A program made the position numbers and the translations under genes. DNA of 64,000 bases, from positions 75,454,001 to 75,518,000 of the forward strand of contig CM126221.1 in assembly GCA_052327205.1 (NCBI GenBank). Direction: 5' to 3'. Positions 20,545-52,358 of this stretch are shown piece after piece. The notes beneath the pieces were generated by a model. It did not search any database. It was not told where the DNA came from and worked only from the letters and a program-made list of their open reading frames with translations. Position 1 is the first letter of the stretch, and every line of letters starts with the position of its first letter. Origin of the DNA: Somniosus microcephalus. Taxonomy: Eukaryota.

Positions 20545-21255
20545 GTCAGGGGAGAGGAGGATAGGAGTCAGGGGTCGGGGGAGAGGAGGATGGGGGTTAA
20601 GGAGCGAAGGATGGGGTCAGGGGTCAGGAGAGGAGGATGGGGGTCAGGGGAGAGGAGGATGGGGTCAGGGGAGAGGAGGATGGGGGTCAGGGGAGAGGAG
20701 GATGGGGTCAGGGGAGAGGAGGATGGGGGTCAGGGGAGAGGAGGATGGGGGTCAGGGGAGAGGAGGATGGGGGTCAGGGGAGAGGAGGATGGGGGTCAGG
20801 GGAGAGGAGGATGGGGGTCAGGGGAGAGGAGGATGGGGGTCAGGGGAGAGGAGGATGGGGGTCAGGGGAGAGGAGGATGGGGGTCAGGGGAGAGGAGGAT
20901 GGGGGTCAGGGGAGAGGAGGATGGGGGTCAGGGGAGAGGAGGATGGGGGTCAGGGAGAGAGGAGGATGGGGGTCGGGAGAGAGGAGGATGGGGGTCGGGG
21001 GAGAGGAGGATGGGGGTCGGGGGAGAGGAGGATGGGGGTCGGGGGAGAGGAGGATGGGGGTCGGGGGAGAGGAGGATGGGGTCAGGGGAGAGGAGGATGG
21101 GGTCAGGGGAGAGGAGGATGGGGTCGGGAGAGGAGGATGGGGTCAGGGGAGAGGAGGATGGGGTCAGGGGAGAGGAGGATGGGGGTCAGGGGAGAGGAGG
21201 ATGATGGGGGTCAGGAGAGAGGAGGATGGGGGTCAGGGGAGAGGAGGATGGGGTA
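20545..21255. repeat. G-rich 21-22-bp minisatellite (about 32 copies)
   Basis: Unit gggggtcaggggagaggaggat; the three overlapping G/E/R-rich ORFs are by-products. Confidence 0.95.
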
Positions 21256-21421
21256 GAATCATAGAAAGTTACAGCACGGAAGGAGGCCATTTTGGCCCAT
21301 CGTGTCCACGCCGGCCAACAAAGAGCTATCCAGCCTAATCCCACTTCCCAGCTCTTGGTCCGTAGCCCTGCAGGTTACAGCTTCCCAAGTGCACATCCAA
21401 GTACTTTTAAACTGTGGTTAG

Positions 21422-21678
21422 TGTAAAGTCTGTGTGTTGTATAGCGAATTAATACACAGACTACAAGAGTAAACTTTAACAGGACTTTACTATTCGAAGG
21501 TCAGGGCGAATCTGCCCAATCACTCATTACACAGCACTTATATACCGGTGTGGTCACCACCGGTATTACAGTATACAGCAGCCAAAATAAAGTAGTGCAA
21601 CACCTAAAATAGTTCTCTTAAAGGTGGACGGTTACATACAATAGTTCTCTTAAAGGTAGAACGGTTACATACACAACA
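21422..21678 (-). repeat. 3' LTR of outer element
   Basis: TG..CA ends; adjacent PPT aaaaagggaggat on minus strand. Confidence 0.95.
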
Positions 21679-21744
21679 ATCCTCCCTTTTTAGCTTACAA
21701 CATACTTATTCCCCATTAAACATAACATATATCCAACTTCATGT

Positions 21745-21861
21745 AAAACAGTTCACAGATGTAGTCTCTGTGGAAAACAGTTCACAGATTCAGTCTCTGC
21801 GGGAAAACAGTTCACAGATTCAGTCTCTGCGGAAACAGTTCACAGATTCAGTCTCTGTGGA
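21745..21861. repeat. Approx. 30-bp tandem repeat (4 copies) in the outer element 3' region
   Basis: aaaacagttcacagattcagtctctg(c/t)gg repeated. Confidence 0.9.
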
Positions 21862-22127
21862 GGCGTCTCCTGTGCTTCCTGACTCGGTCCGGACAACGCC
21901 TCGGTGTTGTAACAGTTCCCTGTGGTGTAGTCGGTTCACGTTGCTGGAGTGACTCATCCAATAGTCCTTCAATGGACTTAACAGCTTGAACTTCCGTCAC
22001 TTCTGAACCAGCATTGCTGACTTCTAAAAGCTTGAGTACCTTGGAAAGTTTTTCTACTTCCGAACTGATTTGGCTCCGTTCGGAGGGACCACGTGTGTGA
22101 TCTGGCAGGTGATAATGGTTCAGATGG

Positions 22128-23879
22128 TCATCTTCTGCTTCGTCTTTTCCTTTTCTGCTTCTTGGAGACTCTCTGGGCTCCACTGTCAGCTGCCAGCTGC
22201 ATGCACATTTCCTCCTCTTCCTCCTTTTTCCGTAGTAGCGCCACCATCTCCCGGTGTTCCTTAGACTTTTTGTGATTCTTCATGGTTTCTGCACTTTGGG
22301 AGTTTTCATCACAAGCTGGGCAGAACAGGTCATCGTAATATTCGGTGTCGTCCAACAGGTCATGGTAATATTCGGTGTCGTCCTGAGCTAGGCCAGTGAG
22401 AGGGTCTTCTATTTCCTCCATACCCAGCTGGATGTTAGCCAGCTTTTGTTCCAAATCCAGACATTTTTCCTGAAGAGACTTCTTCATGTGTTCAGCTTCA
22501 TCCAGCTTTTTCTGGGCTTTCTGCAAGTCTTTTACTAATGACCTCATTTGTGATTTCAATACTTCAACTTCATTCGGAGATTGATTGATCGGACTATTCA
22601 ATCCCTCTACTGGAGCAGCTGTTTCAGCCTTCTGTTGTTCTACATTGACGTGAGTCAGCGTACTTTTGGCATCCACGGGCTGCTCTGCTGCAGTCTTCTC
22701 AGTCTGTGTTGTCACCTCAGCTATTTCAATAACTTTTGAGAGCTCCGAAACCCTTTCCTTTGAAGATTGAAGCTCGTGTTCAAGTTTTTCCCATTTCAGA
22801 GTCTTGTCCCTCAGCATATGAAGGAGTTGACTGACCGTTAACCCTTCTGACATCAGACGTTTCCCAGTATCGTCATCCTGTGTTTTTGACGGATAGGCTA
22901 CAGGGCTGTTGGTAACCTTGCACTGGGGTCCCTTTGCTGCTTCTAATTCTCCATCATCTGCAGCCTCCACCATTCGAATTTCAACAAATGAATCGTTCGG
23001 TGGTGCTGCACCCAACTTCAGTAGGAGCTCGGAATTCATGGCAACCAAATCAGCCTTTTCTGCCTGCAACCTGCTAACAAGCGCCTTCAGTTGCTGAACA
23101 TCTTGCTCCACCAGATTAGGGCACGCCCCTTCAGAACCCGAATCAGCTTTGATTCGTTTGGCCTCCTCGCGCAGACGGTTTGTGTGCTCCTGCTCCATTT
23201 TCTCCATCAGCTGCTTCTGTTGTCTTTCCAGATTCTCCCACTCTGTATCAAAGAACTTTTTCGTTGCATTCATCTCTTGCTCAAGACGGCGAATCATTTG
23301 TTCTAATTGTTGTTGTAGTTTGAATTGGAGTTGAGTTCGAGCCCGGTGTTCCTCAGAAGTGTGCATGTCTGTAGGCTGGACAGACTCAGAATTCTCTGTC
23401 AAACTATGTTGTTGTTGCTCAGTGGAATTCTGTTCTGAAACTTTGTTCTCCTCTAAAGCATAAGCATTTATGCACTCCTTCGTTTTTCCAACATTAGTCT
23501 GCAAGTCCATTTTAGCCTTGTCTTTTGCACATGGGTTGGTCTTACCATCATCAGTTCCAGAGTCTGGGCTGATTATCTTCACCGAGTTCTCACTCTTTAT
23601 GGTTTTTAGGAAGTGCCAGTCCATATTTATTTTCCTGATCCACTCCCGTCCCAGAAGTGGCGGACCCCCCTCAGGCAGTACATATAAGTCCATTCCTTGG
23701 TGTTCTTTGCCCTTGTCTCTCACCTTGACTTTTATCTTTCCGATGGGGTATACTCTTCGCCCCGTGTATGTCTGCAATACAATCTTGGTATCTCTCAAGG
23801 GAATATGTGAGAATAGCCTCTTGTAGTCCTTTCGGTTTATGACTGTTAGGGCTGATCCTGTGTCCAATTCCATTTTCAC
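22128..23879 (-). CDS. Chimeric ORF: retroviral-type aspartic protease fused to STK10/SLK-, optineurin- and DNAJC21-derived segments
   Basis: aa 1-90 protease (LDTGSA..LLGREW); aa 176-245 [37 protein letters not shown] (STK10/SLK PKK region); aa about 246-488 [31 protein letters not shown] (OPTN); aa about 500-579 [32 protein letters not shown] (DNAJC21). No stops over 583 codons. Confidence 0.9.
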
Positions 23880-24196
23880 TTGGACTCCGGCTATTTTGAG
23901 TGTGACCCAGATAATTTGTAGGTCAACTTCCTGATGCGCTCATAAAAGACTGAGTTAAGAGAGTAACTAAAGGCTTTTATTAGCAAAGAACAGAGCATGC
24001 CTCTCGTGGTTGACTGGGTTCCAAGAAGGCAGGGGGCTGCAGGTCAATCACCTTTATACCTGGGCCTGTGTGGGTGGAGCCAGCCGAGACATGTTGAGGC
24101 ATGCATAGGTACAACAGTGTGTAACAACAACAACAACAACAGTGGTTTACCACATTCACCCCTTGTTTAAAATTGAGTCCGGCAGGGTGAAGTGTA

Positions 24197-26821
24197 CTAA
24201 AGGTTCGTGTAAGTAAGTCTATCAGGTGGCCTTGTATGCCGTCCTGATCGTCGTGGTGGTGGCGGTGATGGTGCAGCATCCAACGTTGAGTCTGGCGTCT
24301 CATTGAGTGGTTGGGTGGTCAATGACGGGTCCTGGGGCTGCGGCATGCCGTCTAGCGGGGTTGGGTTGTGGGTAGTGGTGGATGGCAATGGTAGTGTTTC
24401 AGGGGCACCCAAAGGTGCGAGATCTCGTGTGGGGGGTGTGTCCTCCCGCCCGTCCGGGTACGCTACGTAAGCGTACTGGGGGTAGGCGTGGGTAGTGGTG
24501 GATGGCGAGGGGGGTGTTTCGGGAGCACCCGAAGGTGCGAGGTCTCGTATGGAGACTGTGTCCTCCCGCCCGTCCGGGTACACCACGTAAGCATACTGAG
24601 GGTTGGCATGGAGGAGGCTCACCCTCTCGACCAGGGGGTCCGTCTTATGGGACCTCAAGTGCTTCCGCAGTAGGACGGGTCCTGGAGAAGTCAGCCATGT
24701 CGGTAACGAGATCCCCGATGTGGACTTCCTGGGGAAGGAGAACATTCTCTCGTGAGGGGTAGCATTGGTGGCTGTACAGAGCAGTGACCGAATGGAATGG
24801 AGCGTCGCAGGGAGGACTTCCTGCCAGCGAGAGGTCGGAAGGCCCTTAGATTTCAAGTTTAAAAGGACTGCCTTCCAGACCGTCGCATTCTCCCTTTCCA
24901 CCTGGCCATTCCCCCGGGGGTTGTAGCTGGTGGTCCTGCTTGTAGCGATACCTCTCGAGAGCAGGTACTGCCGGAGTTCGTCGCTCATAAAGGATGAGCC
25001 CCTGTCACTATGAATATAGCTAGGGAAACCGAACAAGACGAAGAGGTCATTCAGACATTTAATGACCGTGGTACTGGTCATGTCTGAGCAAGGGATGGCA
25101 AACGGGAAACGGGAGTACTCATCAATTATGTTGAGGAAGTACACATTGCGGTCGGAGGAGGGGAGGGGCCCTTTAAAATCGACGCTCAGCCGTTCAAAGG
25201 GGCGCGTGGCTTTGATCAGGCTTGCTCTGTCTGGCCTATAAAAATGCGGTTTGCACTCGGCACAGATTTGGCAGTTCCTGGTCATGGTCCTGACCTCCTC
25301 GATGGAGTAGGGCAGGTTACGGGATTTGATGAAGTGAAAAAACCTGGTGACCCCCGGGTGGCAGAGGTCATTGTGGAGGGTCTTCAGTCTATCGACCTGC
25401 GCGTTGGCGCATGTACCACGTGATAGGGCATCTGGGGGCTCATTGAGTTTCCCGGGCCGGTACAAGATATCGTAATTGTAGGTGGAGAGTTCGATTCTCC
25501 ACCTCAAGATCTTGTCGTTCTTAATTTTGCCCCTCTGCTTATTATTAAACATAAAAGCTACTGAACGCTGGTCAGTGAGCAGGGTAAATCGTTTTCCGGC
25601 CAGGTAATGCCTCCAATGTCGCACAGCTTCCACAATGGCCTGGGCCTCCTTTTCGACAGAGGAGTGTCGAATCTCGGGGCCCTGGAGGGTCCTTGAGAAG
25701 AAAGCCACGGGTCTCCCCGCCTGGTTAAGGGTTGCAGCTAGGGCAAAGTCGGATGCATCGCTCTCCACTTGGAAAGGGATGGACTCATCCACTGCGTGCA
25801 TTGTGGCCTTCGCAATATCTCCTTTTATGAGAGTGAAGGCTGCACAGGCCTCTGCTGTCAGGGGGAAGGAGGTGGACTTGATGAGGGGTCTGGCTTTGTC
25901 CGCATAGTTGGGCACCCACTGAGCGTGGTACGAGAAAAACCCTAGGCATCTCTTCAGTGCTTTTTGGCAGTGGGGGAGGGGGAGCTCCATAAGGGGGCGC
26001 ATCCTGTCGGGGTCGGGGCCGATGACTCCGTTCTCCACTACACAGCCAAGAATGGCGAGGCGCTTGGTGCGAAACATACATTTGTCCTTGTTGTATGTTA
26101 GGTTCAGCCGCTGGGCCGTACGGAGGAATTTCTCTAGATTAACATCATGGTCCTGCTGGTCGCGGCCGCAGATGGTGACGTTGTCTAGATAGGGGAAAGT
26201 GGCCTGGAGCGCGTTCTGGTCGACCATCCGGTCCATCTCCCGTTGGAAGACTGAAACCCCGTTGGTGACGCCGAAGGGAACTCTGAGGAAGTGGTAGAGA
26301 CGACCGTCAGCTTCAAAAGCTGTGTACTGGCGGTCCTCAGCCCTGATGGGGAGCTGGTGGTATGCCGACTTCAGATCAATCGTCGAGAACACCCGGTATT
26401 GTGCTATCTGATTGACCATGTCAGATATGCGGGGGAGTGGGTATGCATCTAGCTGGGTGTAGCGATTGATCGTCTGGCTGTAGTCAATAACTAGGCGCTG
26501 TTTTTCGCCAGTCTTCACTACCACCACTTGTGCTCGCCATGGGCTGGTGCTACTTTCAATAATCCCTTCCTTCAGGAGTCTTGCTACCTCGGATTTAATG
26601 AAGCTCCTATCCCCGGCACTGTAACGCCTGCTTTTGGTAGCGATGGGCTTACAGTCGCGGGTGAGGTTAGCGAACAAGGAGGGGGGGGGGACTTTAAGGG
26701 TGGAGAGGCTGCAAATGGTGCGCGGCGGGCGGTTTAAAAGCTGCTGGCTGCAGACTGTGAGTGGGGGGAGGGGTCCGTCGTACGCTAATGTGACACTCTT
26801 ATGGTTGCACTGAAAATCCAA
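24197..26821 (-). CDS. Pol of inner Gypsy: protease end, RT (YLDN), RNase H, integrase
   Basis: RT (IDLKSAYHQ, PFGVTNG, FPYLDN), RNase H (ESDASDFA, EKEAQA, LTDQRS), integrase HHCC and DDE (SVDFKGP, HSDRGSSF, NGQVERE). Confidence 0.93.
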   Translation of the reverse strand: MDFQCNHKSVTLAYDGPLPPLTVCSQQLLNRPPRTICSLSTLKVPPPSLFANLTRDCKPIATKSRRYSAGDRSFIKSEVARLLKEGIIESSTSPWRAQVVVVKTGEKQRLVIDYSQTINRYTQLDAYPLPRISDMVNQIAQYRVFSTIDLKSAYHQLPIRAEDRQYTAFEADGRLYHFLRVPFGVTNGVSVFQREMDRMVDQNALQATFPYLDNVTICGRDQQDHDVNLEKFLRTAQRLNLTYNKDKCMFRTKRLAILGCVVENGVIGPDPDRMRPLMELPLPHCQKALKRCLGFFSYHAQWVPNYADKARPLIKSTSFPLTAEACAAFTLIKGDIAKATMHAVDESIPFQVESDASDFALAATLNQAGRPVAFFSRTLQGPEIRHSSVEKEAQAIVEAVRHWRHYLAGKRFTLLTDQRSVAFMFNNKQRGKIKNDKILRWRIELSTYNYDILYRPGKLNEPPDALSRGTCANAQVDRLKTLHNDLCHPGVTRFFHFIKSRNLPYSIEEVRTMTRNCQICAECKPHFYRPDRASLIKATRPFERLSVDFKGPLPSSDRNVYFLNIIDEYSRFPFAIPCSDMTSTTVIKCLNDLFVLFGFPSYIHSDRGSSFMSDELRQYLLSRGIATSRTTSYNPRGNGQVERENATVWKAVLLNLKSKGLPTSRWQEVLPATLHSIRSLLCTATNATPHERMFSFPRKSTSGISLPTWLTSPGPVLLRKHLRSHKTDPLVERVSLLHANPQYAYVVYPDGREDTVSIRDLAPSGAPETPPSPSTTTHAYPQYAYVAYPDGREDTPPTRDLAPLGAPETLPLPSTTTHNPTPLDGMPQPQDPSLTTQPLNETPDSTLDAAPSPPPPRRSGRHTRPPDRLTYTNL

Positions 26822-26864
26822 CCCCAGTAGAACGGCAGCGCAAAGATGGGGCAGGACCAGGAGT

Positions 26865-28013
26865 TTAATCCTGGTGGATAAAGCTTTCCGTGCTCCCGCT
26901 GTCGAAAAGGCAGGTAGTGGCGTGGCCGTTTACCTTAATGTCCATCATGGACCTGGACAGTTGATGAGGGAGAGATTGGTCCAGCGTCACGGAGGCCAGC
27001 GTATGGTCGAGCGAGTCGATGTGGTCGTCAGATGAGGCGGTGGTTGAGTCCGGGTCCCCCGTGGTTGAAGTTGGAGACGTCCGAGATGGCGGACAAAATG
27101 GCGGCGCCCATGGTCCCGATCCCCACGCGGCTGGGGGAGCCCAAGATGGCGGACCAGATGGCTGCCCCCACGGTTCGCACGCGGCGCTGCTGGCGTTAGC
27201 GGTTTTACCTTTGCAGGCGCTGACATAGTGTCCTTTCTTCCCGCAGCCGGAGCAGGTAGCGTTTCTCGCCGGGCAGCGTGCTCTGGGGTGTTTTGCCTGG
27301 CCACAAAAATAACATTTCTGTGCCTTGGACATCGCAGCAGCAGTTGAAGGTGGCGGTCCCATGACCCAAGGTTGTGGCGTCCACGTTGCGGAGCGGTTAG
27401 GGGAGAAGGCGTCCATATTCCTGTGGGCCGCGTCGAGCGAGAGCGTGAGGGACACTGCCTTTCTCAGGTCCATTTCTCCCTTTTCCAACAGTCTCTGCCG
27501 GGAGTAGTCGGACCTTAGACCCGCAACGAAAGCATCTCGGATCAGTCCCTCCGTGTGTGCTGCGGCTGATGCTTCTTTGCAATCGCAGTCTCGGCCGAGT
27601 ATCCGTAGTGCCCGTAGGAAGGCCTCCACCGATTCCCCGGGCTGCTGTCTGCGGGATCTTAAGAGGTGCCGGGCATAGACCGTATTTACCGGGTGTGCGT
27701 ATTGCCCTTTTAGCAGACCGATAGCCGCCGCGTAGGTCGTCGCGTCCTGGATTATTGTATAAACTTGGTGGCTCACCTTTGAGGCCAGGATTTCCAACTT
27801 GTTTTCGTCCAGGGTCACAGTTGAGGCTTGCAGGTAGGCCTCGAAGCAACGCAGCCAATGCACGAATTTGGTACCCGAACCCGCTTCTTGGGGGTCTAGG
27901 TCCAGGCATGTTGGTCTGAGGGCTCGCAGCAGCTCCTGTTGCTCAGCGTTTGGTGCAGCAGCCTGCTGTTCCGCGTTTGGTGCAGCAGCCTGCTGTTCAG
28001 CAAATGTCGACAT
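26865..28013 (-). CDS. Gag and N-terminal protease of inner Gypsy (cut by a deletion/frameshift)
   Basis: Two CCHC knuckles (CYFCGQAKHPRARC, CSGCGKKGHYVSAC); LFDSGSTESFI then stop; protease C-terminus (LLVLPHLCAAVLLGLDF) resumes in another frame. Confidence 0.9.
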   Translation of the reverse strand: MSTFAEQQAAAPNAEQQAAAPNAEQQELLRALRPTCLDLDPQEAGSGTKFVHWLRCFEAYLQASTVTLDENKLEILASKVSHQVYTIIQDATTYAAAIGLLKGQYAHPVNTVYARHLLRSRRQQPGESVEAFLRALRILGRDCDCKEASAAAHTEGLIRDAFVAGLRSDYSRQRLLEKGEMDLRKAVSLTLSLDAAHRNMDAFSPNRSATWTPQPWVMGPPPSTAAAMSKAQKCYFCGQAKHPRARCPARNATCSGCGKKGHYVSACKGKTANASSAACEPWGQPSGPPSWAPPAAWGSGPWAPPFCPPSRTSPTSTTGDPDSTTASSDDHIDSLDHTLASVTLDQSLPHQLSRSMMDIKVNGHATTCLFDSGSTESFIHQD

Positions 28014-28333
28014 TTTGTTTTTGCTAATAAAATTGATGCGCTATCAATTACTCATAAAAGACTGAGTTAAGAGAGTAACTAAAGGCTTTTATTAGCAAAG
28101 AACAGAGCATGCCTCTCGTGGTTGACTGGGTTCCAAGAAGGCAGGGGGCTGCAGGTCAATCACCTTTATACCTGGGCCTGTGTGGGTGGAGCCAGCCGAG
28201 ACATGTTGAGGCATGCATAGGTACAACAGTGTGTAACAACAACAACAACAGTGGTTTACCACACTTCCTTACTCGCATTGTGAATTCTCAGACTATCCAG
28301 TTCTTGGCTGTTGGAGTCTGAATCCGAATTCTG

Positions 28334-29095
28334 TTAATCTGAACTCTTCTCAGTCACCTTGTGTACCTTGCTGTGCTTTTCCTGCGGTGACTTTTTTTTG
28401 TTGCTGGTCTTCTTTCCTGACCGGCATACTTTAGCTATGTGACCAATCTTGCCACATTTTCTACATTCCTGGTTTTTAAACCAGCATTGGTTCTGGTCGT
28501 GTGTTGTCTTCCCACAACGATAACATTTCGTTGTACCCGAAGTCATTTGATCCACGCTGAGTACCGCTGCCTTCAGCTGCATTTCCGCCGTGCCTCTCGC
28601 TGCGGCTTCGTGCGATGCTGCAATAAGGACAGCCTTATCAAGTGTAAGATCGTTCTCTTCAAGCAGTCGCTTTCGTGTTCCTTCCTTCGACAACCCGCAC
28701 ACGAACTTGTCTCTCAATGCCTCTGTCAGATTTTCCCCAAACTGACAGTATTTCGCTAGTCTACGTAGTTCAACCAAATATTCCGCGTTGCTTTCCTCTT
28801 TCCATTGCGTTCTCGCATAAAATTTGAATCGTTCCGCCAACATCAGTGGTGTGGGGTTCAAATGATCCTTCAGGACAGCAACAATATTAGCGAACGTCTG
28901 ATCCGCCAGTTTAGCCGGTGATAGAAGATGCTTCAATAGCCCGCATGTCTTCGCCCCCATTGAGTTTAGTAAGGTTGTAGCTTTATCATCATCTTCTATT
29001 TTATTGGCCTCACAATATATCTCGATGCGTTCTACATACGTGGCCCAATCTTCTACCTCGGAATCAAAATCGTTGATGTTACCACGCTTAGGCAT
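28334..29095 (-). CDS. Gag of outer element (Mag-like, two CCHC knuckles)
   Basis: ATG at 29095 (MPKRGN); EDWATYVERI, ERFKFY, LRDKFVCGL, CYRCGKTTHDQNQC, CRKCGKIGHIAKVC. Confidence 0.92.
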   Translation of the reverse strand: MPKRGNINDFDSEVEDWATYVERIEIYCEANKIEDDDKATTLLNSMGAKTCGLLKHLLSPAKLADQTFANIVAVLKDHLNPTPLMLAERFKFYARTQWKEESNAEYLVELRRLAKYCQFGENLTEALRDKFVCGLSKEGTRKRLLEENDLTLDKAVLIAASHEAAARGTAEMQLKAAVLSVDQMTSGTTKCYRCGKTTHDQNQCWFKNQECRKCGKIGHIAKVCRSGKKTSNKKKSPQEKHSKVHKVTEKSSD

Positions 29096-30160
29096 CTTCA
29101 CAATCTTTCTAAGAAACAACAACGAAGTTTTCCTTTAACTTTTTTTTTCTAAAATGGCGGTTTCCCACGCTGATCTTCTTCCCCGCCCACTTTCAAGATG
29201 GCGGTTTCGCGCTTGTCTTCTTCCCCGCCTAACTGGCGGCTTCCCGCGTTTCTTCCTCTGGTGGGAGGGGTAAGCTTTGCCCTCGGACGACGACCGCTGG
29301 TTTACGGGGTTTGCAGCCTGCGCGCCAGCTTCAGTTTATTCTGAAGCGCGCGCGAGAACAGCCGATCGCGTTCCCTTTTTCGGCAGGGGCAACCGGCGCT
29401 GGGGACAACCAGTTGGCGTCAGACAGCTCCAGCTCCCGGTCCTTCACGGCAGCCGCTGTAAGCCGCTGGCCGGAACCTCGCTCGGCCCCGCTCCCCCCTC
29501 GCTCGGGCTCTGTCTCTCCCGCTCGCCGGCACGGTCTCGCTCGCTCTCTCTCTCGGGCTCCGTCTCTCCCGCTCGCTCGGCTCTCCCAGACCTCCCGCAG
29601 TCCGGTCCTTTCCTCCCCTGGCTGCGGCCGAGTCCCTCGCGGTTTATTGGTTTATTTATTTATTTATTGCCTCCGCGCCTTATGATCCCGGTCACAGCGC
29701 CTCGCGGCCTCGGTAGGTGCCCGGCCTTTTACCCGCTGCGTTCCCGCTTGTAGTCCGGTCTCTCACACCGGCTGCGTTCCCTGCACTGCGGCTGCCGTGC
29801 CCTACGCTGCCCCAGTCTCAGCGCCTCTGGCCCCAGCGCCTCTGGCCCCGACTTCTGTCCAGCTCCTTTCCCCTGGCCGTGGTCGAGTTCACCGCCCTTA
29901 TCCTCCGTTTCTTTTTTATTTTTCCCCCTACTCACAGTCAACGTGGCCGACTTGCTTCTCGTGGCTGATCGGCTCACTCACTACCGTGACAGAAGGGACG
30001 ATCACTGCCTGTTGCTGATGGAAGGCCTCGTGTCAGAATTCTTCCTTCTTCCTTGCTCTGCAGACTCAAGTCTTCTCTCAGCAGAACGGCGAGGGCGGAT
30101 GCCTCTTCTCGACGCTTGTTAACTGCTTCGGATGTATCGCTGCCGCAGGGTAAGATCGAA

Positions 30161-30170
30161 CTCGTCGCCA
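30161..30170 (-). promoter_or_regulatory. Primer binding site (TGGCGACGAG), complementary to tRNA-Ser(GCU) 3' end
   Basis: One nt inside the 5' LTR boundary; matches the recalled vertebrate tRNA-Ser(GCU) end CUCGUCGCCA. Confidence 0.8.
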
Positions 30171-30171
30171 C

Positions 30172-30428
30172 TGTAAAGTCTGTGTGTTGTATAGCGAATT
30201 AATACACAGACTACAAGAGTAAACTTTAACAGGACTTTACTATTCGAAGGTCAGGGCGAATCTGCCCAATCACTCATTACACAGCACTTATATGCCGGTG
30301 TGGTCACCACCGGTATTACAGTATACAGCAGCCAAAATAAAGTAGTGCAACACCTAAAATAGTTCTCTTAAAGGTGGACGGTTACATACAATAGTTCTCT
30401 TAAAGGTAGAACGGTTACATACACAACT
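30172..30428 (-). repeat. 5' LTR of outer element
   Basis: Differs from the 3' LTR only at 30294 and at the terminal base 30428. Confidence 0.95.
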
Positions 30429-31176
30429 GTTAGGGTTCCTGCCTCTACCACCCTTTCAGGCAGTGAGTTCCAGACCCCCACCACCCTCTGGGTGAAGACA
30501 TTTCCCCTCAAATCCCCTCTAAACCTTCCCTCAATTACTTTAAATCTATGCCCCCTGGTTTTTGACCCCTCTGCTAAGGGAAATGGGTCCTTTCTATCCA
30601 CTCTATCTAGGCCCCTCATAATTTTATACCCCTCAATAAGGTCTCCCCTCAGCCTCCTCTGTTCCAAGGAAAACAGACCCAGCCTATCCAGTCTTTCCTC
30701 ATAGCTAAGATTCTCTACTCCCAGCAACATCCTTGTAAATCTCCTCTGTACCCTCTCTAGTGCAATCACATCTTTCCTGTAATGTGGTGACCAGAACTGC
30801 ACGCAGTACTCTAGCTGAGGCCTAACTAGTGTTTTATACAGTTGAAGCATAACCCCCCTGCTCTTGTATTCTATGCCACGGCTAATAAAGGCAAGCATTC
30901 CGTATGCCTTCTTAACCACCTTATCTACTTGGCCTGCTACCTTCAGGGATCTGTGGACATGCACTCCAAGGTCCCTTTGTTCCTCTACACTACTCAGTGT
31001 CCTACCATTTAATGTGTATTCCCTTTCCTTGTTAGCCCTCCCCAAATGCATTACCTCACACTTCTCCGGATTGAATTCCATTTTGCCACTGTTCTGCCCA
31101 CCTGACCAATTTATTGATATCTTCCTGCAGTCTACAGCTTCCTTCTTCAGTATCAACCACACAGCCGATTTTAGTG

Positions 31177-32296
31177 GGGGTAATATACTGGCATGGGTGG
31201 AAGATTGGCTATCTAACAGAAAACAAAGAGTTGGGATAAATGGTTCGTTCTCGGGCTGGCAATCAGTAACTAGTGGTGTTCCGCAGGGGTCAGTGCTGGG
31301 ACCCCAACTCTTTACAATCTATATTAACGATTTGGAGGAAGGGACCGAGTGCAACATATCCAAGTTTGCCGACGATACAAAGATGGGAGGGAAAGCAGTG
31401 AGTGAGGAGGACATAAAAAACCTGCAAAAGGACATAGACAGGCTAAGTGAGTGGGCAGAGATTTGGCAGATGCAATATAATGTTGGAAAGTGTGAGGTTA
31501 TGCACTTTGGCAGAAAAAATCAAAGAGCAAGTTATTATCTAAATGGAGAGAAACTGCAAAGTGCTACAGTACAAAGGGATCTGGGGGTCCTGGTGCATGA
31601 AACACAAAAAGTTAGTATGCAGGTGCAGCAGGTGATCAGGAAGGCCAATGGAATCTTGGCTTTTATTGCAAGGGGGATGGAGTATAAAAACAGGGAAGTC
31701 TTGCTGCAGTTATACAGGGTATTGGTGAGGCCACACCTGGAATACTGCGTGCAGTTTTGGTTTCCATATTTAAGAAAAGATATACTTGCTCTCGAGGCGG
31801 TTCAGAGAAGGTTCACTCGGTTGATTCCAGAGATGAGGGGGTTGACGTATGAGGAAAGGTTGAGTAGGTTGGGACTCTACTCATTGGAGTTCAGAAGAAT
31901 GAGAGGCGATCTTATCGAAACATATAAGATTGTGAGGGGGCTTGATCGGGTGGATGCGGTGAGGATGTTTCCACTGATGGGTGAGACTAGAACTAGGGGG
32001 CATAATCTTAGAATAAGGGGCTGCCCTTTCAAAACTGAGATGAGGAGAAACTTCTTCACTCAGAGGGTAGTAAATCTATGGAATTTGCTACCCCAGAGAG
32101 CTGTGGAAGCTGCAACATTAAATAAACTTAAAATGGAGATAGACAGTTTCCTAGCAGATAAGGGAATTAGGGGTTACGGGGAGAGGGCAGGGAAGTGGGC
32201 GTGAGTCTAGATTCGGATCAGCCATGATCCTATTGAATGGCGGAGCAGGCCCAAGGGGCCGTATGGCCTACTCCTGCTCCTATTTCTTATGTTCTT
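31177..32296 (+). mobile_element. CR1 LINE RT 3' part, inserted into the minus-strand CR1
   Basis: Open frame ILAWVEDWL..GVPQGSVLGP..FADD..to 32204, then CR1 3' UTR. Confidence 0.92.
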
Positions 32297-47388: not shown

Positions 47389-47834
47389 TCAGTATTAACT
47401 AATATTCAAATCACAATTAGCATGGAATGCTCCTTTAAAGGAAATATTTATTATCTACAACAAATAAACGCAATTGGCGATGTAATATTTTTTGCAAAAT
47501 GAATACTTATCCCTCCTGTAGATTTAGAGTTTAGATGGAGTAGACGAGGCCTGTATTCCCTAGAGTTTAGAAGAATGAGAGGTGATCTCATTGAAACATA
47601 TACAATTCTTGAAGGGCAAAAATCTAGCTGTACACTTTTACATGTGAATTGATTTGTGCCTATAGTTTGGAGGAAATGGTTATTATCTTAAATGTGACCA
47701 TTAATTCCTGTATATAATAGCAGCTGGTTAAGAATGTGGAAGATTGTAGCATTTGTTTTTGTGATGCTACTAGGTAAAGTTGAAATTTTTCTAGAAGTTG
47801 TTTTACAGAAAGATTGCACCCTTTGAAACTGCCT

Positions 47835-48846
47835 AATCCAAAAGACGGCACCTCCGACAGTGCAGCACTCCCTCAGTACTGTCCCTCCGACAGTGCAGCA
47901 CTCCCTCAGTACTGTCCCTCCGACAGTGCGGCACTCCCTCAGTACTGCCCCTCCGACAGTGCGGCACTCCCTCAGTACTGTCCCTCCGACAGTGCGGCAC
48001 TCCCTCAGTACTGTCCCTCCGACAGTGCGGCACTCCCTCAGTACTGTCCCTCCGACAGTGCGGCACTCCCTCACTACTGTCCCTCCGACAGTGCGGCACT
48101 CCCTCACTACTGTCCCTCCGACAGTGCGGCACTCCCTCACTACTGTCCCTCCGACAGTGCGGCACTCCCTCAGTACTGTCCCTCCGACAGTGCGGCACTC
48201 CCTCAGTACTGTCCCTCCGACAGTGCGGCACTCCCTCACTACTGTCCCTCCGACAGTGCAGCACTCCCTCAGTTCTGCCCCTCCGACAGTGAAGCACTCC
48301 CTCAGTACTACCCCTCCAACAGTGCAGCGCTCCTTCAGTACTGCCCCTCCGACAGTGCGCCCTCCCTCAGTACTGCCCCTCCGACAGTGCGGTGCTCCCT
48401 CAGTACTGACCCTCCGACAGTTCAGCGCTCCCTCAACACTGCCCCTCCGACAGTGCAGCGTTCCCTCAGTACTGACCCTCCGACAGTGCAGCGCTCCCTC
48501 AGTACTGACCCTCCGACAGTGCAGCGCTCCCTCAGTACTGCCCCTCCGACAGTGCAGCGCTCCCTCAGTACTGACCCTCCGAAAGTGCAGCGCTCCCTCA
48601 GTACTGACCCTCCGACAGTGCAGCGCTCCGTCAACACTGCCCCTCCGACAGTGCAGCGCTCCCTCAGTACTGACCCTGCGACAGTGCAGCGCTCCGTCAA
48701 CACTGCCCCTCCGACAGTGCAGCGCTCCCTCAGTGCTGCACTGCAGTATCAGCCTGGATTATGTGCTCCAGTCCCTGGAGTGGGACTTTGAACCCGCAAC
48801 CTTCTGACTCCGAGGCGAGGGTGCTGCCCACTGAGCCACGGCTGAC
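47835..48846 (-). mobile_element. DeuSINE 5' part with internal 33-bp minisatellite (about 27 copies, 47851-48730)
   Basis: Unit ccctccgacagtgcggcactccctcagtactgt is a segment of the SINE; SINE head intact at 48735-48846. Confidence 0.92.
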
Positions 48847-49532
48847 TGTAATGTTATGCGATCACAGTGATGATCAATATCAGTACTGTAATTGATCACA
48901 ATCGCTGAGATACATTTTTGGTGTTGCATTTATGTTCTCCAGTTAAACATTTGGTCGTTATTATTTATTCGTTATTACTCCAGATTTAAAAAATGAATCC
49001 AGTGGCAATCATGAATTCCAAGACACGTTGGCCTAGAAATTCGGTTGTTTGCGCCAGTGGTTAGCGCCTAAAGAGACCGAGAATGGGGGCGTAACCTAAT
49101 GTTGGGGCGGGCGCAATGAAGATAGCGACAACTCCCATATTGACTATACATTTAACGCCTGCGCTAAGTGTTTGCACGCGCCCGCGAGCGCAAGCAGATC
49201 ATGACGTCATTTCAGTGTGCAACGTCTTTTAGGGGTGCCTGAGCGGATATTGGGTGGCGCCCGGAGCCTTTACGCCTAGCGCTATTAGTGACAGTTCGAA
49301 GGAGCGTTAGCAGGCCCTTCTCAGAGTCGGGGGGTGCTATTTAAAGGGGACAGCTCTAGTACAGAAGCTTCAGCCACTTGGCCTGTTCATTGCGATCATT
49401 GGTGGAGAGAGTTGGTGAGCTACTGTGGAGCAGAGTTTTTGGAATTTAGCATTAGAGTACTTGGGACCCTCAAACCTGTCCGGAGCAGTTGGAGCACTAG
49501 ACCTAACAGCCTTTTGACCAACTGGCATCGGA

Positions 49533-50376: not shown

Positions 50377-52358
50377 CTACTGCTGGCCCCTTGATGGAGA
50401 ACGACTTCTCTTTCGCGCTCGGCCCCTTCCTTCCCTGCTGCTCCTACGTAATTGCACCCCAGTGGCGGGGTGAAGGCTGGAGGACGCCTGCTGACTGTCT
50501 GGAAGCGCAGAAGCCCCTGAGGGACGGCCTGGCCGACCTCTGGGCTTGGAGGGTGCGGACGCAGGATGCTTGATCTGAGCATAGCTGGAAGCAGTGTGCC
50601 CTGCAGGTGGTGGCAGCTGCACTGCAGACGTGCCAGCGCTGGCATGTGCAATGGTCACCTGCCGAGAGAGGACACCTGCACCATTGTCGGACGACACACT
50701 GGCTCTCTGAGGGGACCGGCTCAGCTCATCCGCCACAATCGCATGCTCCACTGATTCCTGGCCTTGTATGGGACTGGAAGGGCTCGGGGTGATCCTAGCT
50801 GATGCAGATAGGGTGGCTGCAGTGAGAGTTTGCGTTGCCTCAATCTGGGTGTGGACGAGGCCGGCAAGTGACTGCGTGGCAGCAGTGAGGACCTGTGAGC
50901 CAGGTGCCAGTGCTTCGGAGAAGCCCTGGACAGTTCTTTCCATTGCTTCAGACAAGGCCGGTGCTGACCGCTCCACTGCCTCAGACAAGCCCTGCACAGA
51001 CCTTTCCAGGGATTGTCCGAAGCCCTGAACAGTCCTTTCCATAGCGGCCCCGAAGCCCTGGACAGTCCTCTCCATTGTTGGCCCAAAGCCCTCGACAGAC
51101 CTCTCCATTGTTGCCCCGAAGCCCTGGAGAGTCCTGTCCATTGTTGCCCCGAAGCCCTGGAGAGTCCTCTCCATTGTTGCCCCGAAGTCCAACACACTCT
51201 TTGCCAGTGTATCTATTGACTGAGGAATCCTCCCCACTGCAACCATCAGCTCAGTGTGCCTGAGCCGGGCCTGGGTGCTCATTTCAGCCAGGCGACGCAC
51301 CTCCTCTGCACTCTGTGCAGCAGTCATCACTACCTGCCTTGCCCTCCGGGGAGACGGTGGCCGAACTTGCCTACCCCCCTTGCGTTGCTGCATGCCGCTT
51401 GGTCCGGCAACTGCCTGATCCTCAGAGCCGCCCCCCCCCTCCCCTCCAGGGAACTACTATCCCCAGTCTGTAGATGTGTATGCTCCCCTGAGATTGGAAC
51501 GGATGGTCCGGCTTCCTCCTGATCCTCGCCTCCGGAGGCACTGGCACTGGCAGCTTCAGGGCGTGGAGCCCCAGTTGGTGATGTATCATCTGAAAGCAGG
51601 GAGGTGGAAGAGTGGCTTTAGCAAAAGGACAGGTTGCGGAAAGGCATGGCAGATTGCGGCACACTGAGGAAGCATGCTGGCGGGGGGACCAAGTGGAAGG
51701 AGACAGCTGCAAAAGGTGAGAGCCTTATCCTCGCTGTCGAGAATGAGGTCGGCAGCTACAGTGGTAACAGGACCAGACAGACTTCCTCCAAGAATCTGGT
51801 GCACTCTCTCCTCGAGATCCGTGAGAGTGACCACTTGTGGAGGTCCGCCACCGGTTCAACGCTGCTCCTTTCGCATCGTCGCCAGCTTAGACTGCAGGGG
51901 AAAGAAGGGGAAGTTCTGTAACATGATGCCTTGAGAGATCATCTCATGCCCCCCATGGTGCAAGAGCCCTTACATGTGGCCTTGAGTGAAATGTCCATGT
52001 GTGTTCCCAGAAAGGGCCATGGGTGCTTGCTGACAGATGGCCATTGGGGCATCATGGCAACAGGGTCCTCGAAGTTAGGTGCAGATGGAGGGAATCAGAA
52101 GTTTGCATAACCAACACTCACCCTAACGACCCGAGTGAGGTCGTTGAATTTCTTCCTGCACTGAACAGGGGTCCTGGTCGCCATGCTGTTGGAGTTGACC
52201 CTCTGAGAAACCTCCCTCCAAGATCGCCATTAAGCCTTTTGATTCGGCCTCTTGCCATTGTCAGGATACAGAACATCTTGACGGCGCTCAACTGCAGACA
52301 CCAACTGGTCCAGAGCCTCAGTGCTGAAGCGCTCTGCTCTCTGTCTCACCTTCTCCAT
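50377..52358 (-). pseudogene. Myb/SANT-like (NAIF1/MSANTD-type) Harbinger accessory gene, spliced, disrupted
   Basis: Exon 1 (about 52122-52358) FSxEALDQLVSAVE..RTPVQCRKKFNDL, donor gtgagt; exon 2 from 51891 KEQR*TGGGPP..LTDLEERV; last part has 11-aa repeats GFGATMERTLQ. Confidence 0.75.

Follow-up and report, generated by a model that had tools for sequence, protein, structure and literature searches.

The subject of this analysis is a long terminal repeat (LTR) retroelement on the minus strand of a 64,000-nt stretch of Somniosus microcephalus DNA (the window; bare coordinates are positions within it), in which pieces of three host genes, STK10, optineurin (OPTN) and DNAJC21, stand behind gag and the aspartic protease (Table 1). 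The reading considered probable is that of a non-autonomous Gypsy element which captured STK10 from a circular RNA and carries its cargo as a translatable stuffer; the observations behind it concern the structure of the element, its parent, the host exons, the junctions, the copy number and the transcription.

The LTRs, target-site duplication, primer-binding site, polypurine tract, gag and protease named in the original prediction, together with the missing reverse transcriptase (RT), RNase H and integrase, were confirmed (LTR identity 255/257, duplication GTTAG, Pfam). One terminal base of the TG...CA ends is changed in the 5' LTR. The primer site TGGCGACGAG was found in the same place in the window and in 20 whole copies from other loci, with single-base variants in two of them. 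Gag showed an identity of up to 51% to single-frame gag-pol proteins, 51% also being the best value among 7,395 candidate protein matches to Gag-protease, and the nearest proteins to Gag-protease were single-frame gag-pol proteins of ~1,310 aa named K02A2.6-like. The 602-aa frame at 22128-23936 yielded no RT, RNase H or integrase match in Pfam (E<=0.1); in the element region such matches were confined to an unrelated Gypsy element nested between gag and protease. The window element is a non-autonomous Ty3/Gypsy derivative, presumably of the Mag clade, in which the order protease, RT, RNase H, integrase (PR-RT-RH-IN) was not found.

In keeping with the predicted frame of 876 codons with a single TAA, the two window pieces overlap by 5 nt when each is aligned by itself to a natural uninterrupted copy, and they carry one 3-nt deletion and one premature stop in gag (28334-28336, codon 254). 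The three gene identities were likewise borne out: the STK10 part contains a PKK domain (E 6e-15) and is ~81% identical to shark STK10 in two blocks, the optineurin part shows an identity of 77% over 255 aa (PDB optineurin chains, E 0.002), and all eight DNAJC21 matches (128 candidates) have the DNAJC21 domain set, seven being so named. The closest named proteins to the cargo are from sharks. Alignments of vertebrate optineurins across the STK10 block were rejected as coiled-coil noise. The mosaic is more complex than had been described, because STK10 is present as two blocks with an internal deletion (for block a, a sister copy has 92.7% DNA identity to the host exon) and as a further piece after the stop (21953-22141) which had not been noted; the stop of the long frame (22128-22130) sits inside this remnant. 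The optineurin cargo lacks the N-terminal NEMO domain as well as the C-terminal CC2-LZ and zinc finger (domain positions from shark OPTN). The claim that every junction is in frame fails at the fourth (DNAJC21 to STK10). Among the 120 cargo protein matches listed (of 420), which were host genes, no protein record of the fusion was found.

Table 1. Features of the window element (coordinates within the 64,000-nt window)
Feature	Position	Strand	Remarks
Target-site duplication GTTAG, right	30429..30433
5' LTR, 257 nt	30172..30428	-	255/257 to 3' LTR; ~90% to LTR of pol-bearing L057
Primer-binding site TGGCGACGAG	30161..30170	-	directly behind 5' LTR
gag	28337..29095	-	two CxxC knuckle motifs; Pfam zf-CCHC, weak Retrotrans_gag
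Nested unrelated full-length Gypsy	23932..28263	-	gag, protease, RT, RNase H, integrase; own LTRs; CTTCC duplication
Aspartic protease	23600..23931	-	Pfam Asp_protease_2 E 3e-07; DTG motif 23853-23867
STK10 cargo block a	23352..23594	-	shark STK10 aa 399-479; 81% aa identity
STK10 cargo block b	23145..23351	-	aa 616-688; crosses host exon-exon junction; Pfam PKK
Optineurin cargo	22413..23144	-	~aa 133-383; DSFVEIRM motif 22971-22994
Three STK10 codons, leftover of the circle's putative first exon	22404..22412	-	junctions compared with L055, L051
DNAJC21 cargo	22142..22403	-	acidic linker, C2H2 zinc finger, basic tail; Pfam zf-C2H2_jaz
STK10 remnant, out of frame	21953..22141	-	~aa 322-388; 89% to host exon
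Integrase C-terminal tail remnant	21848..21952	-	sister copy 87.5% DNA match to pol end of L057
Polypurine tract	21679..21696	-
3' LTR, 257 nt	21422..21678	-
Target-site duplication GTTAG, left	21417..21421

The STK10 cargo and its host exons

A search with shark STK10 yielded 47 best scored genome loci with an intronless stretch of aa 376-704. The order of the STK10 parts is permuted (389-704 followed by 290-388) in 46 of the 47; one more has a shorter second block, and the listing gave no second block for one of the best 47. In two of the copies, L051 and L052, the frame reads Gag, protease, STK10 389-704, STK10 290-388 and integrase tail. The splice acceptor before STK10 aa 290 occurs at exactly one place in the 6.45-Gb genome (C8:167198408-441), and the splice donor after aa 704 also at exactly one (C8:167191931-959), on the same strand and 6.5 kb downstream of the acceptor; a first donor pattern had given 0 matches because the host differs from it at one base, and a relaxed pattern found the donor.

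The five host STK10 exons measure 135, 675, 131, 124 and 180 nt, with a sum of 1,245 nt. The STK10 cargo of L051 is likewise 1,245 nt long, shows ~99% identity to the host exons and is missing the four introns between them. The back-splice junction, with reversed exon order and true splice sites, was seen in L051, L052 and L059; the window subfamily has lost it, while keeping pieces from both of its sides in the permuted order. Across the seven aligned elements the STK10 cargo never extends beyond the five exons, and it opens and closes at a single point in the 675-nt exon, behind TATTGGATGAG (11 nt), which is present both in host STK10 at the opening point and in the pol of the parent behind the protease. 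Since the cargo length equals the sum of the five exons, in permuted order and with the donor joined to the upstream acceptor, the cargo is read as one full lap, likely derived from a circular (back-spliced) RNA, and a closed circle would have been the template. The 131-nt exon of host STK10 (L061, C8 ~167193683) ends at a GC donor (GC-AG intron).

Parent, intermediates and copies

At least 13 loci (exact pattern) continue from the switch site into pol-like sequence. Among them the pol-bearing L057, itself a broken copy, shares 93.5% identity with L051 across LTR, gag and protease. Its pol encodes RT, RNase H and integrase domains in PR-RT-RH-IN order, and the cargo elements have tails that match its integrase tail. 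Neither a frame for env nor room for one was found between pol and the 3' LTR of L057, and no env was seen in the element. The motif GAGTC, found behind the protease site and again at the start of the kept integrase tail, is a likely switch point for the loss of pol.

Eight intermediates (L051-L055, L058-L060) were chosen from 47, 66 and 86 scored matches. STK10 480-615 is deleted in L053 and L054, where OPTN (~aa 133-428) replaces the back-splice junction; OPTN is shortened at an 8-nt match in L055; and DNAJC21 has been added within the remaining STK10 exon in the window subfamily, L058 and L060. The junction leading from DNAJC21 back into STK10 does not keep the frame, which terminates the protein in the window, L059 and L060; in L058 reading continues past it. 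L059 carries DNAJC21 and the back-splice junction without OPTN, from which it follows that modules recombine and that the order of the OPTN and DNAJC21 captures is not fixed by the data. In L060 an in-frame deletion fuses Gag at aa ~100 to the end of OPTN plus DNAJC21, most of the protein being gone. Besides the 8 nt at the OPTN trim, the junction matches comprise the 11 nt between pol and STK10 and 5 nt at the STK10 deletion. From the host exons the window lineage has diverged by 6-10%, L051 by ~1%. Synonymous divergence (dS) between two subfamily groups is ~0.5 in protease and 0.1-0.2 in gag, a contrast which is a further sign of recombination. The two protease types (~dS 0.5) are spread across L051-L055, L057 and the window family, which suggests a second helper lineage. 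Serial capture of spliced RNA, as originally predicted, is supported by the absent host STK10 introns, the short shared sequences at the junctions and the intermediates, from which the order of events is read; the prediction missed that the first capture was a permuted, probably back-spliced STK10 RNA and that later cargo was nested inside it, not appended.

A 20-mer from the STK10 part of the cargo gave 3,832 exact matches in the window's genome (control 0) and was present in 32 of 32 sequences checked; one of the matches should be the host gene. The family thus comprises about 3,800 copies and would total roughly 17 Mb; preliminary candidate totals (3,924, 42,270, 23,839 and 127,531) did not enter this figure. 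The nested Gypsy is private to the window copy, being absent from all 20 copies fetched whole. Matching 5-bp duplications flank 18 of these 20, in 15 different versions, and the two LTRs of a copy show 0-5 differences. Four loci on different contigs (L037, L038, L039, L041) share flanks and target duplication and are either duplicated segments or redundant haplotigs. Free of stops and frameshifts were 18 of the 29 copies covering the frame (15/26 after merging shared-flank loci), with 876-877 codons; uninterrupted copies hold a single 877-codon Gag-protease-STK10-OPTN-DNAJC21 frame. The chimera has retrotransposed further after capture. The predicted mobilisation in trans accords with the 15 different target duplications among 18 measurable copies and with the pol-bearing parent family; the proposed count of copies with distinct duplications and search for an autonomous partner returned many copies and the pol-bearing relative. 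One locus, L049 (C1:400484695-400494694), is a tandem pair sharing one LTR with both 876-codon frames open, and L035, L050 and L054 are inserted within coding sequence of other retroelements.

DNA runs under three organism labels contained 0.35-0.56 of the words searched. In two RNA runs, X13 and X14 (organism B, which need not be the window's species), 19,020 of 16.65 million and 17,292 of 14.40 million reads match the family copy L039 at 92% likeness (~0.1%). The reads cover all 30 bins of L039 and are strongly one-sided in the expected element sense in X13 and mixed in X14. Two expressed deletions, of 318 and 258 nt, take out aa 526-633 and 550-636 and with them the optineurin motif; the 318-nt deletion is carried by 374 and 216 reads in the two runs. 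At L039:4446, 169 reads of X13 continue from the DNAJC21 linker into other sequence, whose translation begins with another CxxC motif (CPTCNFDSH) and may belong to a fourth cargo gene.

The proposed mechanism is as follows. Gag and protease would be made in cis, and RT and integrase borrowed from the pol-bearing parent. In an enzymatic step deduced from its visible product, RT would have left pol for a co-packaged back-spliced STK10 RNA at the 11-nt match behind the protease, copied the full five-exon lap and used this match again to return. The loss of RT, RNase H and most of integrase was probably due to a separate switch between the two GAGTC motifs, before or after this capture. To judge from the intermediates, the STK10 deletion would have come next, followed by an OPTN mRNA piece over the back-splice junction, the OPTN trim and a DNAJC21 piece in the remaining STK10 exon, with subfamilies exchanging modules. 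Co-packaged host RNAs and sister elements would be joined throughout by template switching at short matches. Copies with the frame open behind Gag-protease may be favoured, through translation-linked RNA stability or packaging and perhaps a basic C-terminal tail; the cargo would serve as filler, its amino acids being free to drift.

Selection and rival explanations

Changes were called family-wide when shared by at least 90% of 26 window-family copies relative to agreeing older copies, and were counted as nonsynonymous (N) and synonymous (S). Family-wide gag changes were 13-16N:23-25S against 70:36 for private gag-protease changes (p 0.003-0.005; each gag count includes one apparent stop, an artefact of a codon hit more than once), and family-wide protease changes were 5N:5S. 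Family-wide cargo changes were 40N:18S with 0 stops, against 76:35 with 5 stops for private cargo changes (Fisher p=1), and from host to L039 the translated STK10 blocks changed by 18N:10S. Judged by these counts, Gag is conserved and the residues of the cargo drift; purifying selection on the captured coding sequence is not supported, nor is the original suggestion of selection for the sequence of a chimeric protein, in view of the neutral ratio of the cargo (the private changes serving as the neutral standard) and of the expressed variants that delete the optineurin motif region.

The frame behaves differently from its content. The absence of stops among the 58 family-wide cargo changes compares with an expectation of 5% (p ~0.05), the four listed RNA deletions in the in-frame region (75, 318, 258 and 39 nt) are all multiples of three, and the listed small RNA indels lie outside the frame in 12 of 12 cases; an 89-nt gap of unknown content in one DNA contig is not a multiple of three. 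What is kept seems to be the open frame, not what the cargo spells. Every full-length frame read ends in, or near, the basic tail, which may be what the open frame delivers.

Several points weigh against the circle-and-stuffer reading. The circle itself was not seen as RNA, the element transcripts carrying the same junction, and a linear exon-repeat transcript would yield the same product. Reads 99% alike to the window subfamily number only 353 of 19,020 and 369 of 17,292, so that the RNA signal comes from the superfamily as a whole and includes parent elements and host mRNA. The RNA tables cover a part of the variants, with 18 further joints and 18 further indels beyond those listed. The conservation of Gag may stem in part from renewal by recombination with the parent. 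The sole pol-bearing copy read, L057, is broken, and the intermediates were taken from protein searches biased to long frames. A guessed acceptor pattern for the host OPTN exons gave 0 matches in the genome, and a skate DNAJC21 query returned element copies only; as the host exons were not found, intron loss in OPTN and DNAJC21 rests on exon-sized frames of other species.

Among the alternatives, it is unlikely that frame and cargo are both unselected, captures falling in frame through codon-phased coding microhomologies and frames being open through the youth of the family alone. The junction matches are indeed purine-rich codon repeats, the frame is lost on leaving DNAJC21, and of 29 copies 11 are broken by now. 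Yet the distance of the window lineage from the host exons, set against that of L051, implies that it went through many rounds without acquiring a stop; indels in RNA stay clear of the frame, and L058 has regained read-through. Another reading, equally unlikely, is that the element uses host RNAs, circles included, as a store of exchangeable parts from which a highly made polyprotein is assembled, some modules aiding the particle. If this were true, the LC3 motif of OPTN, the DNAJC21 zinc finger and the basic tail might serve autophagy escape or nuclear entry, and the excess of cargo copies over the parent by two orders of magnitude, the ongoing module swaps and possibly further host genes would be explained.

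Slightly more doubtful still is that the same captures gave a chimeric protein useful to the element or the host, e.g. a Gag-tethered decoy in which an optineurin LC3-binding motif lacking the ubiquitin-binding end is combined with coiled coils and an RNA-binding zinc finger (the roles of the optineurin motifs are assumed here). Such a protein would suit captures that are all three in sense and in frame at entry, the keeping of DSFVEIRM and the zinc ligands in the window subfamily, the ~3,800 copies against 13 exact parent matches and the strong transcription; it sits poorly with the neutral N:S ratio of the cargo (host to L039 included), with the expressed loss of the OPTN motif region and with L051 and L059, which do without OPTN, and L060, which does without most of the protein.

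A little less probable again is that the permuted STK10 derives from a linear exon-repeat RNA, made by mis- or trans-splicing, or from a partial duplication of the host gene. With the 11-nt match present twice, a linear repeat would give the same one-lap product, and no circle was observed. The single acceptor and single donor in 6.45 Gb, however, leave no exact genomic duplicate, and the confinement of the cargo to five exons in the seven aligned elements also speaks against such an origin; PMC4897178, in its available text, takes non-colinear junctions as a mark of circle-derived copies and also warns of exceptions. An assembly artefact or a single accident, for which no support was found, can be dismissed in view of the thousands of copies, the 15 distinct target duplications, the DNA runs under three organism labels, the RNA reads and the 40 of 40 scored genome matches that span the whole 1,373-nt cargo at >=99%, which refute mis-assembly.

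Known systems and surroundings of the element

Transducing retroviruses have a defective genome with a gag-onc fusion, their enzymes being supplied by a helper. The shark family resembles them in being defective, in the fusion of host coding sequence to Gag and in its helper enzymes; unlike them, it shows env neither in the element nor in L057, propagates in the germ line and carries cargo without sign of a selected function.

LTR-mediated retrocopies are known in fish, chicken and mouse (Tan et al. 2016, PMC5131818), and in the text available these share with the shark family the replacement of part of the frame by a retrocopy, the two kept LTRs, short matches at switch points, multi-gene chimeras, further copying and fusions that are often in frame. 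They number few loci per species (5/7 in zebrafish, 8 in mouse), and the word 'circular' is absent from the main text (PMC5131818); the shark family, by contrast, has ~3,800 copies, graded intermediates and a permuted first cargo. Maize Bs1 is likewise an LTR element with an internal chimera of three host genes in one frame, but it is a plant element with one to five copies, all with the same switch points, and no circle is reported in the text available (PMC5131818, PMC13317346).

Pseudogenes derived from circular RNA (circRNA) are known in mouse and human, among them those of mouse circRFWD2 (Dong et al. 2016, PMC4897178). According to the available text, circRFWD2 copies have a non-colinear exon junction, exons of the circle only, no poly(A), an LTR nearby and tens of copies; the mechanism is called mysterious and no carrier is named there (PMC4897178). 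In the shark family, on the other hand, carrier, parent, switch site and exact one-lap length can all be seen, and Gag-protease and cargo form one in-frame fusion.

A shark genome preprint describes single-exon OPTN copies with LINEs (long interspersed elements) or LTRs within 1 kb, and LTR expansion (10.1101/2024.09.09.611499). These copies are read there as duplicated host genes, and its main text makes no mention of a Gag fusion, STK10 or DNAJC21. No published description of the family, or of one-lap circle capture by an LTR element, was found in a search that left aside subscription journals, Repbase/Dfam and bioRxiv supplements. The kind of event, LTR-mediated gene capture, is already known; new are the probable circle, the scale and the intermediates.

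The route by which circRNAs are written back into genomes is open in the available text of PMC4897178; the shark record, complete with parent element, host exons, switch site and one-lap cargo, suggests LTR template switching as that route and opens it to testing. The record is also a rare stepwise series of vertebrate gene capture, at a scale far above Bs1 or the known animal cases. Such copies mimic duplications of OPTN, STK10 and DNAJC21 as well as highly expressed circRNA junctions, and gene-family and circRNA counts in sharks carrying the family need correcting.

Regarding the surroundings, the nested Gypsy (23932-28263) is young, and its LTRs, which contain a CAA microsatellite, are 98.6% alike. 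Its gag (391 aa) and pol (910 aa) occupy separate frames, and its integrase tail carries a tandem duplication of 120 nt. It was rejected as a helper, showing no DNA match to the outer LTR. No tRNA genes were found in the window. The insertion lies in a LINE-like repeat (30432-32204), presumably of the CR1/L2 type, with many diverged copies elsewhere in the window. A purine-rich minisatellite with a 22-nt unit (20549-21279) lies 140 nt from the element, and two GC-rich 33-nt tandem arrays of codon-multiple period (47700-48856 and 50921-51217) are located inside a GC-rich block at 48-52 kb.

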